From assembly GCA_022827685.1 (NCBI GenBank), contig JAJEIH010000053.1, forward strand, positions 56 to 64,055: a DNA stretch of 64,000 bases. The letters run 5' to 3'. The DNA is from Alphaproteobacteria bacterium. GTDB taxonomy: Bacteria; Pseudomonadota; Alphaproteobacteria; Bin95. This document shows positions 1 through 61,242 of this stretch, in pieces (the first letter of the stretch is position 1; each line of letters begins with the position of its first letter). The translations under genes were made by a program, and so were the position numbers. The notes beneath the pieces were generated by a model. That model did no database searches. It was given only the letters and a program-made list of their open reading frames with translations, and had not been told where the DNA came from.

Positions 1-235
1 TTGCGGCGGCGCGGTTCGCGCGCCTGATTGCGCGCGCGAGGCAGAGGGCGCACCTCTCCCGTCGGCTTCTCACGGGTTTTCAGAAAATGGCGCCGCCCGG
101 CCGCGCAACGCCCGGGACGCGGCTCCGGATGCCGCTTCCCTCGGGACCATCATAACACAATCCGCCAGATGTCAAGCCCAAAACACGAACAAAAAGCAAT
201 TTCACCAGATTTTTTTCATGTTTGCGACTTTGGAA
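1..235 (+). repeat. Copy A of a ~230-bp dispersed intergenic repeat (R1). It may extend upstream of the window.
   Basis: Aligns over ~230 bp (estimated ~70% identity) with 41962..42190. Shared blocks: cggcgcgg.tcg.gcgcctgattgc.cgcgcgcgaggcag; cacctc.cc.gtcggct; cttcc.tcgg.acccatcata.cac; atg.caagccc.aaaa; aatttca. An unusually A/T-rich tail is present in both copies. Confidence 0.7.
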
Positions 236-244
236 GAGAGCAGG

Positions 245-395
245 ATTCGTTCCGATAGAACCGTGCTCCGCTCCACGCACCAATCGTCGCCCCGGCCTTC
301 GAGCCGGGGGCCGGAACCGCCTTTGAAACCTGACGAGGCCCCGACGGGCTGGACCCCGGATCTCCGCTTCGCTCCGTCCGGGGTGACGAACAGGG
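245..395 (+). repeat. Copy A of a GC-rich hairpin-containing repeat (R2), downstream of the epimerase gene
   Basis: Shares ccgatagaa...gtcgccccggcc[ttc/ccc]gagccgggg...ggaccccggatctcc...gctccgtccggggtgacga with 1385..1553, and its 3' half with 22851..22916 (inverted). Contains the stem-loop ccccggcc-ttcgag-ccgggg. Confidence 0.65.
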
Positions 396-464
396 TTGCG
401 CATTCGATACCGTCTCAACCCGAACGGGTTGCGCTCTGGCGCGGCCCCCCGCCGGGAACGCGCC

Positions 465-1370
465 TCAGACTTCGGCCTGCACCGCCTCGATGATCTGGAG
501 CACGCGGTCCCGGAAGGGCGCGTATTGCAGGCCGAACTCCTCCACCAGGCGGCGGTTGTCGATCAGGAAATTGCCGGAGGCGGCGCGCCCGCCCGTCTCC
601 TGCTCGAAGGAGATGTCGGCGTCCGGCAGGAACTCGCGCACCAGCGCCGCGAGATCGCCCATCGAGATGGCATGGCCGCCCGTATTGTAGATCCGGTGCT
701 GCGGGGCCTCGGCGAGCGTGACGCGCGCGAACGCCTCCGCCACATCGTCCACATGGACGGGCGCGCGCATCGCGTCGGCATGGGGGAAGCTCACCGGCTC
801 GCCGCGGGCCGGGAAGGTGACGCAGCGTACATGGTCGATGGACCCGTAGATCTTGTCGGGCCCGGTCACGTTCGCCGGCCTGATGCCGGTGATCGCCATG
901 CCGTATTTCTCCGTGTAGTCCCGCGCCTGCCACTCGTTGAAAATCTTGTGCATGGCGTACTGGTTGTCGCCGTAGCGGTGGTCGTCCTCATCCGCCGCGC
1001 GCTCGCCGAAATGGCTCTGCAGGCCGCTGACCGCAAGCGAACTCGCATAGACGGTGTGCGCGACGCCGCCGAGCCGGGCCGCCTCGAAGCAGTTGCCCAT
1101 GCCGAGAATGTCGAGCTTGAGCGCGATGCGCGGCGGCAGCTCGCCGATGAAATAGGCGAGGTTGACGAGCCGGTCGGGCTTCGTCTCCGAGACAAGCGCC
1201 ATCACCTGGTCGAACTGCGTCACGTCGCCCTTGCGCGTCTCGGCCATGTCGGCGAAATCCGCCGCCTCGGGCGCGATGTCCATTGCGACGACCTCCGCGC
1301 CCTGCGCCGCTAGCAGCGGCACCAGCCGGCGCCCGATAAAGCCGGTTCCCCCGACCACCAGAACCTTCAT
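465..1370 (-). CDS. NAD-dependent epimerase/dehydratase family protein (SDR, Rossmann GxxGxxG)
   Basis: MKVLVVGGTGFIGRRLVPLL N-terminus and an extended-SDR-like body. The ATG at 1370 is preceded by GGAGAGGA. The ORF track's upstream M at 1412 adds 14 residues with no RBS. Confidence 0.85.
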   Translation of the reverse strand: MKVLVVGGTGFIGRRLVPLLAAQGAEVVAMDIAPEAADFADMAETRKGDVTQFDQVMALVSETKPDRLVNLAYFIGELPPRIALKLDILGMGNCFEAARLGGVAHTVYASSLAVSGLQSHFGERAADEDDHRYGDNQYAMHKIFNEWQARDYTEKYGMAITGIRPANVTGPDKIYGSIDHVRCVTFPARGEPVSFPHADAMRAPVHVDDVAEAFARVTLAEAPQHRIYNTGGHAISMGDLAALVREFLPDADISFEQETGGRAASGNFLIDNRRLVEEFGLQYAPFRDRVLQIIEAVQAEV

Positions 1371-1384
1371 GTCCCGTCCTCTCC

Positions 1385-1553
1385 CGTTCGAGTCGCCCCG
1401 ATAGAAGCACATTTCGATTCAGGCTCGAAACCGTCGCCCCGGCCCCCGAGCCGGGGCCAGCGCTGCCCTTTCAGGCCGGGAGATGGACCCCGGATCTCCC
1501 CCGGATCGGGTCCGGGGCAGGCTGCTGCGCTCCGTCCGGGGTGACGATCGGAG
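1385..1553 (+). repeat. Copy B of repeat R2, between the methyltransferase stop and the epimerase start
   Basis: See 245..395. It contains the hairpin cgccccggc-ccccga-gccggggc, which probably doubles as the terminator of the upstream NHase/MTase operon. Confidence 0.65.
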
Positions 1554-41470: not shown

Positions 41471-41496
41471 GTCATGAGATGTCATGTTTCGTCATG
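41471..41496 (+). repeat. Triplet of 10-bp-periodic GTCATG direct repeats (cluster X1)
   Basis: GTCATGagatGTCATGtttcGTCATG, followed by the hairpin ggggcgg-gtct-ccgcccc (41497..41514), the likely dsbA terminator. Confidence 0.8.
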
Positions 41497-41590
41497 GGGC
41501 GGGTCTCCGCCCCGGTCGTTTGCAAGGCATTGCAGCCTCCTTGACGGTCTGCGGTCCCGGACGCCCCGCTGCCGGAAGGGCGCTCCCCTC

Positions 41591-41607
41591 GCGCGCATAA
41601 TGCGCGC
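41591..41607. promoter_or_regulatory. Perfect 17-bp palindrome GCGCGCATAATGCGCGC (candidate dimeric-regulator operator)
   Basis: Eight-bp arms around a single central A, lying between repeat clusters X1 and X2. Confidence 0.4.
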
Positions 41608-41666
41608 CCGGCTGCGCCCGCGCGCCCGCCTGCGCGAGGCGCGGAACCGGCCTCTCCACGGTGGAT

Positions 41667-41692
41667 GTCATGCAATGTCATGTTTCGTCATG
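41667..41692 (+). repeat. Triplet of 10-bp-periodic GTCATG direct repeats (cluster X2)
   Basis: GTCATGcaatGTCATGtttcGTCATG. Confidence 0.8.
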
Positions 41693-41718
41693 AGGAACTG
41701 CGGAACAGCGTCCGGTCT

Positions 41719-41757
41719 GTCATGAGATGTCATGTTCTGCATGCGCATGGCGCATGT
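41719..41757 (+). repeat. GTCATG direct-repeat cluster X3 (two exact units, then degenerate GCATG units)
   Basis: GTCATGagatGTCATGttctGCATGcGCATGgcGCATG. Confidence 0.7.
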
Positions 41758-41961
41758 CCCGCGGCTGGTTCCGGCATGGGATGGTCGTTTCGAGCGGGGT
41801 TCCGGGTATTCCATCCTGTTTTCCGGGTTCTGCATCTTCGGCATGGGGCCTTCCTTCCGGTCCGTCTTCGTTCCGTCCTTGCCGCCCGGCTTGTCCGAGC
41901 GGCGGGACTCTGATTCGCGCGTATCCTGCGCGCGCGCCTGCGCCGGCGGGGGCGGGCGTAT

Positions 41962-42190
41962 CGCGCCGGCGCGGCTCGTGCGCCTGATTGCCCGCGCGCG
42001 AGGCAGGCACAGGACACACCTCGCCTGTCGGCTGAATCGGGGTCGTTCCGCACCGGGCCGGCGCGGGCGGGAAGCGGTCCGCGCGGACTTCGCCTTCCTC
42101 GGACCCATCATACCACTGTTTCTGAGAATGCAAGCCCCAAAAAGAGAAATATTACTTAAATTTCAGGAACAATTTGCCGGAGCACAAGCC
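41962..42190 (+). repeat. Copy B of the ~230-bp dispersed repeat R1
   Basis: See 1..235. Confidence 0.7.
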
Positions 42191-42373
42191 ATTCAGGTTG
42201 AGACGACCCTGTTGGCAGAGTCCCGAATCGTCCGCCGCAGAGGCAGTGCTGCATCGAGTCCGCAGCCTCGCAGGAGGATCTGTGGCCAAACTCGCTGCGG
42301 GAGCGCAAGGGGCGGGGTGACGCCGGCGGCGGGGCCTTGAACGATCCGGTGGAGCAGGCTGCCCGGGGCCGGT

Positions 42374-59225: not shown

Positions 59226-59543
59226 ATGATTCCGGGCGAAATCCTGACTGCCGAGGGCGAACTCCTGCTCAATCCAGGCCTTGAGACCAGGGAGATCGAG
59301 GTTGCGAACGGCGGCGACCGGCCCGTACAGGTCGGCAGCCACTTCCATTTCTTCGAGGTCAATCCGGCGCTGCAGTTCGACCGCGAACAAGCGCGGGGGT
59401 GGCGCCTCGACATCCCCGCCGGCACCGCCATGCGCTTCGAGCCGGGCCAGACGCGCCTTGCGCCGCTGGTCCCCTATCGCGGCACCCGGCGCGCCGTCGG
59501 CTTCAACGCGCGTGTCATGGGCGCGCTCGACGGAAAGCGCTGA
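59226..59543 (+). CDS. ureB: Urease subunit beta
   Basis: [18 protein letters not shown]...[11 protein letters not shown], 105 aa. Confidence 0.95.
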
Positions 59544-59544
59544 C

Positions 59545-61242
59545 ATGGCTTATGCGATCCCCCGCCGCGACTATGCGGACATGTTCGGGCCGACTGTGGG
59601 CGACCGGGTACGCCTTGCCGACACCGAGCTGTTCATCGAGGTCGAGCGCGACTTCACCGCCTATGGCGACGAGGTGAAATTCGGCGGCGGGAAGGTCATT
59701 CGCGACGGCATGGGCCAGTCCCAGGCGACGCGGGCCGAGGGCGCGGCCGACACGGTGGTGACCAACGCGCTGATCCTCGATCACTGGGGAGTCGTCAAGG
59801 CCGATATCGGCATCCGCGACGGGCGCATCCTGGCCGTCGGCAAGGCGGGGAACCCCGACATCCAGGACGGCGTGGACATCGTCATCGGACCCGGCACCGA
59901 GATCGTCGCCGGCGAGGGCAAGATCGTCACCGCCGGCGGCTTCGACTGCCATATCCATTTCATCTGCCCGCAGCAGATCGAGGAGGCGCTGGCCTCCGGC
60001 ATCACGACGATGATGGGCGGCGGCACCGGCCCCGCCACCGGCACCAACGCCACCACCTGCACGCCGGGCCCCTGGCACCTGCAGAGGATGATCGAGGCCG
60101 CCGACGGCTTCGCCATGAATCTCGGTTTCGCCGGCAAGGGCAATGCAAGCCTGCCGGCCGCGCTGGAGGAGCAGGTGCAGGCCGGCGCCTGCGCGCTCAA
60201 GCTCCACGAGGACTGGGGCACGACGCCGGCCGCCATCGACACCTGCCTCGGCGTTGCCGATGCGATGGACGTCCAAGTGATGATCCACACCGACACGCTC
60301 AACGAGTCCGGCTTCGTCGAACACACTGTCGCCGCCTTCAAGGGCCGCACGATCCACGCCTTCCACACCGAAGGAGCGGGCGGCGGCCATGCGCCGGACA
60401 TCATCAAGGTCTGCGGGCTCGACAATGTGATCCCGTCCTCGACCAACCCGACGCGCCCCTACACGGTCAACACAGTCGATGAGCATCTCGACATGCTCAT
60501 GGTCTGCCACCATCTGGACCCGCGCATCGCCGAGGACGTGGCCTTCGCCGAGAGCCGCATCCGCAAGGAGACCATCGCAGCCGAGGACATCCTGCACGAC
60601 ATGGGGGCGTTCTCGATCATCGCGTCGGACAGCCAGGCGATGGGCCGGGTCGGCGAGGTCCCGATCCGCACATGGCAGACGGCCGACAAGATGAAGCGCC
60701 AGTTCGGCCGGCTTGAGGGCGAGAGCGGCGAAAACGACAATCTGCGCGCCCGGCGCTATATCGCCAAATACACCATCAACCCCGCCATAGCGCACGGCAT
60801 GGCGGACCATATCGGCTCGATCGAGGCCGGCAAGCTGGCCGACCTCGTCGTCTGGTCTCCGGCTTTCTTCGGCGTGAAACCGGACCTGGTGGTGAAGGGG
60901 GGCATGATCGCAGCCGCCGTCATGGGAGACCCCAACGCCTCCATCCCGACGCCGCAGCCGGAGCATTTCCGGCCGATGTTCGCAGGCTTCGGGCGGGCGC
61001 GGCCGGCAACCTCCGTCACCTTCGTCAGCGAGGCCGGGCTCGATGCGGGTTTCGACACCGCCCGGCGGCTGGAGCCCGTTCGCCGCACGAGAACCATCGG
61101 AAAGGGGGACATGATGTTGAACGACCTCATGCCCGATATCGAAGTCGATCCCGAAACCTACGAGGTGCGCGCGGGCGGCGCGCTGCTCACCTGCGAGCCG
61201 GCGGAAGTGCTGTCCATGGCGCAGCGCTACTTCCTGTTCTAG
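59545..61242 (+). CDS. ureC: Urease subunit alpha
   Basis: Nickel-centre residues (HIHFICPQ, carbamylated-Lys context [26 protein letters not shown]). Confidence 0.95.

Follow-up and report, generated by a model that had tools for sequence, protein, structure and literature searches.

Two similar intergenic stretches as probable 5' modules of an undescribed dispersed element in an alphaproteobacterial genome

Two similar intergenic stretches in the 64,000 nucleotides of alphaproteobacterial DNA analysed here (the window) are probably 5' modules of an undescribed dispersed element of high copy number and represent two of its members, one gene-bearing (copy A, at the window start) and the other gene-less (copy B, ending near position 42175). 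We put the probability of this reading at roughly 0.7. Read 5' to 3', a unit of the element would comprise an A/T-rich tract, a promoter, a leader of ~215 nt, a Shine-Dalgarno sequence with its ATG, variable cargo and a 3' module built around CATGAC hexamers. An earlier note on this DNA had interpreted the two stretches as paralogous small-RNA genes with A/T-rich tails. Its view of them as real, non-coding, paralogous and probably transcribed holds up; the stand-alone sRNA genes, the strand and the meaning given to the tail do not.

The similarity itself is firm. Positions 1 to ~215 and 41961-42175 are ~72-75% identical, and a MAFFT alignment of 1-300 with 41950-42260 has a mean column identity of 75%, with the likeness fading past ~215 and 42175. 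Local alignment of 1-235 with 41951-42200 by Smith-Waterman scores 77, compared with 20.2 +/- 2.9 (maximum 31) for dinucleotide shuffles (n=500) and at most 40 for other real segments of the window (n=400). Searched with an nhmmer profile of 72 non-redundant units of the family, the 64-kb window gives two minus-strand matches and no others: copy B at 42102..41887 (E=2.4e-35) and copy A at 143..2 (E=3.2e-28), the latter clipped by the window start. The two stretches of ~230 bp are thus where the earlier note had placed them, to within ~15 bases, and every shared block that it listed is present in both copies.

The likeness is not, however, confined to ~230 bp at the window edge, as had been thought. 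What lies beyond that edge was read from two close relatives rather than from the window's own genome: L140 (GCA_022820525.1), 98.4% identical to window positions 3-1417, and L007, 94.8% identical to the window. In both, the similarity to copy B continues through the leader and resumes in the 3' module. The strand implied earlier was also the wrong one, as promoter, Shine-Dalgarno/ATG and ORF direction all have the element reading on the minus strand (Table 1).

Table 1. Features assigned to the two units inside the window; promoter, leader and hairpin assignments are predictions
Feature	Position	Strand	Details
Copy A, A/T-rich UP-like region	176..209	-	contains TTTTTGTTCG; approximate element 5' edge near 209
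Copy A, predicted -35 TTGACA	170..175	-	from window sequence and family pattern
Copy A, predicted extended -10 TGtTATGAT	149..157	-	15-nt spacer from -35; TATGAT at 154..149
Copy A, leader inside the window	1..143	-	ACGGGAGAGGUGCGCC at about 45-60; core CAATCAGGCGCGCGAACCGCGCCG at 30..7
Copy A, hairpin P1	114..140	-	arms GGGAAGCGGC..GCCGCGTCCC; predicted transcript 5' end
Copy A, hairpin P2, then AUUUUCUGAA	79..112	-	terminator scan call at 112..89
Copy B, A/T-rich upstream region	42134..42175	-	element 5' edge about 42169-42175
Copy B, predicted promoter	42107..42133	-	-35 TTGCAT 42133..42128; 15-nt TGg spacer; -10 TATGAT 42112..42107
Copy B, leader	41862..42101	-	~215-240 nt; core CAATCAGGCGCACGAGCCGCGCCG at 41990..41967, plus GCAGGATACGCGCGAATCAG
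Copy B, hairpin P1	42070..42098	-	GGAAGGCG..CGCTTCC, inner GTCCGCGCGGAC
Copy B, Shine-Dalgarno-like GGAAGGAAGG	41858..41849	-	ATG at 41844
Copy B, 58-codon ORF MPKMQNPENRMEYPEP...	41668..41858	-	range includes Shine-Dalgarno; GGA-rich, T-poor stretch
Copy B, 3' module	41647..41790	-	pre-cluster block ATGCCGGAACC..GCGCATGCAGAA
Copy B, CATGAC-N4-CATGAC	41734..41719	-	within 3' module
Copy B, CATGAC x3	41692..41667	-	within 3' module
Copy B, TGGAGAGGCCGG	41658..41647	-	corresponds to family 3' end TGGAGTGGGCCCC
Copy B, extra ~150-nt module	41471..41646	-	palindrome GCGCGCATTATGCGCGC; third CATGAC x3 cluster 41496..41471

Promoter and structured leader

The A/T-rich stretches are genuine features of the family: the 45 nt 5' of the -35 hexamer average 62% A+T family-wide, against 31% for the whole window. 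Rather than a tail at the 3' end, they form the region upstream of a predicted promoter, where they resemble an UP element. The motifs TTTGTTC and AATTCC mark the point at which units from different loci begin to resemble one another. In L008, an IS1595-type element starts at the equivalent of window 209/210; in a strain variant of copy B (L002), the element is retained next to a flank that differs from about window 42169 outwards.

Both copies had been described as lying outside promoter positions, yet each has a predicted promoter of its own, and copy A faces a gene just outside the window. From a predicted start at about 142-141, the copy A promoter would fire leftwards, out of the window, into the gene for a 147-aa protein. 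The family consensus is TTGACn-N15-TGnTAnnAT, and 50 of 88 non-redundant units score at least 8/12 against it. Among these 50, the -35 hexamer is TTGACC, TTGACA or TTGACT in 40 and TG stands at -15/-14 in 45, while the -10 alternates among TATGAT, TAGAAT and TACAAT across relatives with TAnnAT constant. Conserved hexamers combined with variation at the less critical -10 positions are what selection on a promoter is expected to leave behind. Judged by sequence, the region has the hexamers, the workable spacing and the conservation above its surroundings that mark a sigma-70-type promoter, and we infer that it is active. A generic promoter scan picked up neither copy's promoter, since it needs a spacer of 16-18 nt and is blind to the 15 nt found here.

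From the promoter, a GC-rich leader of ~215 nt (up to ~240) runs leftwards to the Shine-Dalgarno sequence and ATG. Its parts follow one another in a fixed order: hairpin P1 (~7 nt past the -10), hairpin P2, ACGGGAGAGGUGCGCC, an insert of variable length, the core CAAUCAGGCGCGCGAACCGCGCCG and GCAGGAUACGCGCGAA. Because indels within it are not multiples of three, and because the homologues of the downstream protein start at MTATD, we take it to be a non-coding 5' leader; a 199-aa extended ORF that a gene caller drew across it was rejected on the same two grounds. In genomes labelled 'MAG: Alphaproteobacteria bacterium', the leader is 72-87% identical ahead of protein homologues that are themselves only 43-69% identical.

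The earlier note had proposed looking for compensatory substitutions between copies, and across the family P1 shows such changes. With 72 non-redundant leaders aligned by plain MAFFT, 9 of its 10 pairs have changed on both sides, giving 37 compensatory cells where shuffled alignments give 15.6 +/- 3.1 and none of 500 reaches 37. P1 is also present in the minimum-free-energy fold of the copy B sense strand. As its A-C cells are as numerous as its G-U cells, P1 alone separates neither an RNA from a DNA palindrome nor one strand from the other. Around the core, GUGCGC and GCGCGC would form a second helix, 99.5% paired and varying through one-sided C/U changes only; its 109 G-U cells, against 2 of the A-C type, are compatible with the sense strand only. 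This support is partly circular, since the alignment that supplies it is also the source of the helix, and an alternative register is equally possible. For the other helices, (GC)n repeats leave the register ambiguous. A local hairpin, CGCGCGCG-CAATCAGG-CGCGCG, did not beat shuffles and was dropped. By folding energy, too, the leader did not stand out from its shuffles (z = -1.2 on the sense strand and -1.95 on the antisense), a measure that is uninformative at 75% G+C.

P2 forms a hairpin in all units, with a sequence that falls into three types. The P2 of copy A, followed by its U-run, looks terminator-like and could be an attenuator. Overall, the evidence that the leader is structured is real but limited. 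Together with the family-wide conservation of the promoter, the compensatory changes in P1 suggest that the element is very probably transcribed into a structured RNA. The position of P1 at the predicted 5' terminus points to a leader that would act as a 5' UTR, stabilising or controlling its own transcript; the terminator-like P2 of A-type units could attenuate it, and the transcript may also function as a structured RNA.

Gene-bearing and gene-less units

In L140 and L007, the copy A leader reaches a Shine-Dalgarno sequence and start codon, GAAGGAGGAACG-ATG, followed by a 147-aa ORF to the left of the window. Behind the ORF come a GC-rich inverted repeat and a conserved block ending in CATGACATCTCATGAC, and the end of the unit adjoins a convergent CoA-transferase gene. 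The 147-aa protein has 137 homologues, all of which start with MTATDPRP and lie directly behind GAAGGAGG, and this conservation identifies the ORF as a real gene of an unannotated multi-copy family. For five family proteins, the longest contig reported is 3,605,959 bp in each case, most simply one and the same contig. No Pfam domain was found in the MTATD protein or its 137 homologues, no PDB relative was found by sequence, and an AlphaFold model (pLDDT 76) returned no Foldseek match in PDB or BFVD. The N-terminal domain does match phrog_31793, a PHROG with no assigned function, albeit weakly (E=2.9e-5). Gene callers draw spurious ORFs of ~200 aa over units on either strand, and the genuine family protein of 150-210 aa carries no annotation.

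Copy B has the same promoter and leader, and behind its Shine-Dalgarno-like sequence stands an ORF of 58 codons that is probably not a conserved protein. Substitutions in the short ORFs show no excess at third positions (32/55/44 across the three positions in copy B's ORF class, and also 34/34/39), which argues against conserved proteins. This variable stretch is rich in GGA, with 10 occurrences in 140 nt in copy B. Family-wide it contains 5.3 GGA per 100 nt, against 1.8 in the window, and 9% T; the family GGA count is 408, where shuffling gives 249 +/- 13. A terminator scan called no intrinsic terminator in copy B or in most other units.

The two units also share their 3' module, in which copy B is 80% identical to the unit of copy A. 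Across the family this module consists of a block ATGCCCGAAAC..CATATGAGCCTTGCGCATGCAGAA, two to four CATGAC hexamers at an exact 10-bp period and the end sequence AYYYCGCTGGAGTGGGCCCC, beyond which sequences are unrelated. The motif CATGACNNNNCATGAC matches the window five times, with 0.23 matches expected, and all five lie in the copy B unit. In most units (the short ones) the array lies 150-370 nt past the core, and solo 3' modules exist as well, for example at L007 13559 and L100 8718. Three hexamers with a 10-nt period place TGA, and also ATG, in all three frames, and many cargo ORFs terminate within the array. Copy B carries, in addition, an extra module whose third CATGAC x3 cluster abuts the stop codon of a convergent dsbA-like gene, so that both window copies point at convergent genes; this module recurs in the relative L142 and is read through in one protein (P0120). 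Taken as a whole, the sequence of copy B is that of a gene-less derivative: the same promoter and leader, a short non-conserved ORF, and CATGAC modules.

Dispersal and alternative explanations

Metagenomes from about ten projects contain the 24-nt leader core in at least 120 contigs, and promoter and leader also occur in several 'MAG: Alphaproteobacteria bacterium' genomes; two units (L013 and L014) lie on one 5.46-Mb contig. Units measure 450-1100 bp and differ in what they carry. One class encodes the MTATD protein or its truncated, internally deleted or frameshifted remnants. Another encodes a 320-aa protein with an N-terminal Terminase_2 domain (Pfam E=1.1e-12, above the curated cut-off), or remnants of it; no relation was detected between the MTATD protein and the C-terminal part of this TerS-like cargo. 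A third carries an isochorismatase (E=1e-29), and several more have only non-conserved ORFs of 15-60 codons. One promoter and leader thus precede non-homologous genes, though not necessarily within one genome, and no functionally coherent set of downstream genes emerged, the cargo being unrelated and many units gene-less. We also considered the unit as a promoter of the next host gene and set this aside, because that gene is co-oriented with the unit in just 31 of 49 cases by a crude GC-frame gene caller.

Comparison of related genomes shows sites with and without the element. Between the stop codons of the epimerase and CoA-transferase genes that flank copy A there are ~1.3 kb in the window's lineage, compared with 7 nt in L141, whose epimerase is 86% identical. 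A 92% relative, L142, carries a different type of unit at that site, with a type-2 5' end, an MTATN remnant, the extra module known from copy B, and CATGAC x3 plus GGAGTGGGCCC. At the copy B locus, no unit is found 3' of eamA in L143, L145 or L147 (86-92% identical), and in L145 the next gene follows directly behind eamA. The strain variant L002 has copy B with a chimeric P1 as well as its different flank. Contig ends fall inside units in several assemblies and for both copies (L003, L004, L006, L009-L012), and family-wide a contig end is no more than 600 nt away in 58 of 121 units, where 36 are expected.

Many transposase-less copies (at least 120 loci) combined with empty sites in related genomes is MITE-like behaviour, and here the element behaves more like a dispersed intergenic mosaic, the option which the earlier note had ranked below sRNA genes. 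We found no terminal inverted repeats in the whole copy B unit or in the copy A unit as read from L140, only internal GC-rich palindromes, and no transposase or integrase within or beside the units examined. Target-site duplications were not evident when the empty site of L141 was compared with the filled sites of L140 and L142, a comparison made between relatives of 86-92% identity that have extra DNA flanking the units. At this distance, the absence of a unit may instead mean loss or rearrangement, and at the copy B locus the far-side synteny of the empty-site genomes differs too. Since the promoter and the tract upstream of it are copied along with the rest, the element would spread as DNA and not via its transcript, and its units would decay by internal deletion.

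Stand-alone, trans-acting small-RNA genes on the minus strand are the explanation closest to the earlier proposal. The promoter would then yield a discrete structured RNA, either a P1+P2 RNA of ~60-85 nt from copy A, with the terminator-like P2 as its 3' end, or a longer, GGA-rich copy B RNA that, like CsrB/RsmZ, titrates an RNA-binding protein. The strong-looking promoter, the hairpin with covariation, the terminator score of the copy A P2 with its U-run, and the GGA enrichment of a copy B without a conserved ORF all fit such genes. On the other hand, a conserved protein gene, with its Shine-Dalgarno sequence (GAAGGAGG) and ATG, follows directly on the copy A leader; no terminator was called in copy B or in most units; and a family of over 100 copies, with remnants left by deletion and diverse protein cargo, is foreign to sRNA genes. 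Nor did a search of Rfam, which the earlier note had suggested, recover a family at either copy or at 10 other units. At the gathering score the single match in the whole window was 5_ureB_sRNA, outside both copies; at E<=10 the copies gave chance-level matches only, and the 10 other units gave nothing at the units at E<=1. An aspS match in copy B (22 bits against a gathering score of 42.5, E=0.38) did not recur in other units and was discarded. A look-up of CsrA and Hfq genes found none in the 0.95 Mb searchable, too little to be informative. We regard small-RNA genes as unlikely. The ~215 nt might also be a cis-regulatory leader, a riboswitch or attenuator retained upstream of the genes of a regulon without having spread. 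Its conserved hairpins, the terminator-like P2 of A-type units, the mutually exclusive GC helices around the core and the 31 co-oriented genes would all suit this role, which nevertheless seems quite improbable: nucleotide-level conservation extends from the leader to the promoter, the A/T tract and a separate 3' module, the cargo is unrelated and often no real gene at all, both window copies face convergent genes, and the unit is missing beside the same flanking genes in related genomes.

A further possibility is that the units are remnants or satellites of phage or gene-transfer-agent packaging loci, with promoter and leader opening a late operon and with the phased CATGAC hexamers serving as sites for a small-terminase-like protein. 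In lambda cosB, the R sites are bound by gpNu1, and direct repeats on one face of the helix typify protein-binding sites; the three CATGAC repeats have this arrangement. The Terminase_2 protein and its remnants in some units, and the weak phrog_31793 match of the MTATD N-terminal domain, point the same way. Against this, no large terminase, portal or capsid gene stands beside any unit examined, and a copy number above 100 is unlike that of prophage remnants. The copy B unit had no BLAST match among 72,556 plasmids and 50,697 phage records, and the leader core had none in 2.9 million viral contigs. We consider a packaging origin very improbable.

The dispersed element that we favour would, if the reading is right, have brought about 100 or more near-consensus promoters with long leaders into the intergenic DNA of the lineage. 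They would be a major source of transcriptional noise and rewiring, including antisense transcription and read-through into convergent genes, as at both loci in the window. Units would also drive rearrangement, as synteny breaks, strain variants and contig ends coincide with them. The element is directional and has neither terminal inverted repeats nor a recognisable recombinase. Its conserved leader and CATGAC array offer concrete sequences for experiment. A bolder idea, to which we give only an outside chance, is that the units are self-contained 'expression cassettes' in which a portable strong promoter, structured 5' RNA, a translated or titrating GGA-rich stretch and the CATGAC array work as one machine and in which proteins of the element itself mediate copying or recombination by a route other than that of known transposases. 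In one version, the array would be a putative three-frame stop as well as a putative binding site for the MTATD protein or the TerS-like HTH protein, and hundreds of copies would rewire transcription and genome order in this uncultured alphaproteobacterial lineage.

Comparison with known systems

No literature match was found for the exact motif strings of the element, and its nearest counterparts each share some of its properties. The alphaproteobacterial sRNAs in Rfam are likewise intergenic, with promoters of their own, GC-rich hairpins and paralogous copies. The element differs from them in a copy number two orders of magnitude higher, in an RNA continuous with a translated or translatable region, in having no covariance-model match at any threshold, and in the terminator that copy B lacks. 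Densities of GGA of ~5 per 100 nt lie within the range of CsrB-type RNAs, and the variable stretch of the element, at about 5 per 100 nt, resembles CsrB/RsmZ in this respect; within a unit, however, no part is less conserved than the GGA-rich one. REP/BIME and RIME sequences are modular, palindromic, GC-rich repeats of 35-150 bp that lie between convergent genes and have no promoter or cargo. The element is likewise modular, GC-rich, palindromic and intergenic between convergent genes, and is set apart, on that general description of those repeats, by its promoter, Shine-Dalgarno/ATG and cargo. Integron attC sites are imperfect inverted repeats, whereas the CATGAC repeats are direct.

Two further groups come closer. 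'Putative mobile promoters' are near-identical promoter regions found ahead of non-homologous genes (PMC3575422), much as one promoter and leader here precede the MTATD protein, the TerS-like protein, the isochorismatase and short ORFs. Mobile promoters consist of the promoter segment alone, whereas the element adds a 215-nt leader and a 3' CATGAC module, and most of its copies have no gene to drive. The Correia repeat-enclosed elements of Neisseria and promoter-bearing MITEs are short, non-autonomous intergenic repeats that are present in at least 100 copies and carry promoter elements (PMC10969869, PMC3184786). Like the element, they reach high copy number, often sit at the 3' ends of genes, alter local transcription and break assemblies. 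They are about 100-300 bp long and bounded by terminal inverted repeats and target-site duplications; the element is directional, 450-1100 bp in length, and has a structured leader, a Shine-Dalgarno/ATG, cargo and a distinct 3' module. As the terminal inverted repeats that define MITEs were sought and are missing from it, we class the element as a promoter-carrying dispersed intergenic repeat rather than as a MITE.

Possible rearrangements and insertion sequences at the units

In L002, a strain variant, dsbA (the convergent gene beside copy B) and copy B itself are kept, but past the unit's 5' edge the DNA is unrelated to the window and reaches a DctPQM transporter, in the place that eamA occupies in the window. 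The P1 hairpin of this copy B unit is of the copy-A type, which suggests recombination between units.

On one MAG contig, L008, an IS1595-family element carrying a transposase gene starts precisely where copy A's unit has its 5' edge, at the equivalent of window position ~209/210. Its first bases are GGGGCTTATATC, and the contig stops short of its second end. Apart from this IS1595-type element, two further repeated sequences (..TGGAGTGGGACCCTGGGTCCGGACAGTTTGGTTGAAGGAAATTGACAGGTGCGCGGGCATTGGAAGGATCACA and ..CACTAGTGTCCGGTTGAGTTGCGGGATTTTGGAGAAAAGTGG) adjoin or break CATGAC arrays; such repeats are found in L048, L070, L081, L100, L109 and L026, and in L030, L084, L111 and L130. Both look like insertion-sequence ends, either targeting the 3' module or trapped there.

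Coordinates of the features described in this part
Feature	Sequence	Positions	Strand
Strain variant	L002	3380-5200	
IS1595-family element	L008	11162-12206	
Its transposase gene	L008	11233-12177	
Repeat at CATGAC array	L100	8718	
Spacer beside copy A	window	236-464	
Inverted repeat	L140	1985-2119	
~200-aa ORF over unit	window	41732-42340	+
~200-aa ORF over unit	L001	5010-5612	+
~200-aa ORF over unit	L007	11298-11897	+
5_ureB_sRNA match	window	59697-59986	-
Urease large-subunit ORF	window	59281..61242	+

Possible small repeats around copy A

The epimerase stop is separated from copy A's unit by ~230 nt, a stretch likewise missing at the empty site of the related genome L141. It holds a GC-rich motif of GATCCGGGG..-type, which may represent another small repeat family; one of the family proteins, P0011, has a similar 24-nt motif as an in-frame insertion ('PRIGSGAG'). 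In L140, immediately to the left of where the window begins, a REP-like 42-nt GC-rich inverted repeat (74% complementary, arms 51 nt apart) separates the 147-aa ORF of the copy A unit from that unit's 3' module.

ORF and Rfam calls

Gene callers and the ORF list draw ~200-aa ORFs across units on either strand, with a 200-aa call on the wrong strand overlying copy B and a 199-aa extension overlying the copy A leader. Such calls are artefacts of high G+C content. Across the window, Rfam gives a single match that reaches gathering score, to 5_ureB_sRNA (103.8 bits). It is antisense to the 5' portion of the gene for the urease large subunit, and is most simply read as a match to conserved urease coding sequence, not as evidence of an sRNA.

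Units with a different 5' region

Two units, in L111 and L134, lack the usual promoter and carry ..CATTGTTCGTATTATGTTCCATTCC... instead. This sequence includes GTTC-N7-GTTC, which matches the direct-repeat form of the alphaproteobacterial LexA box.
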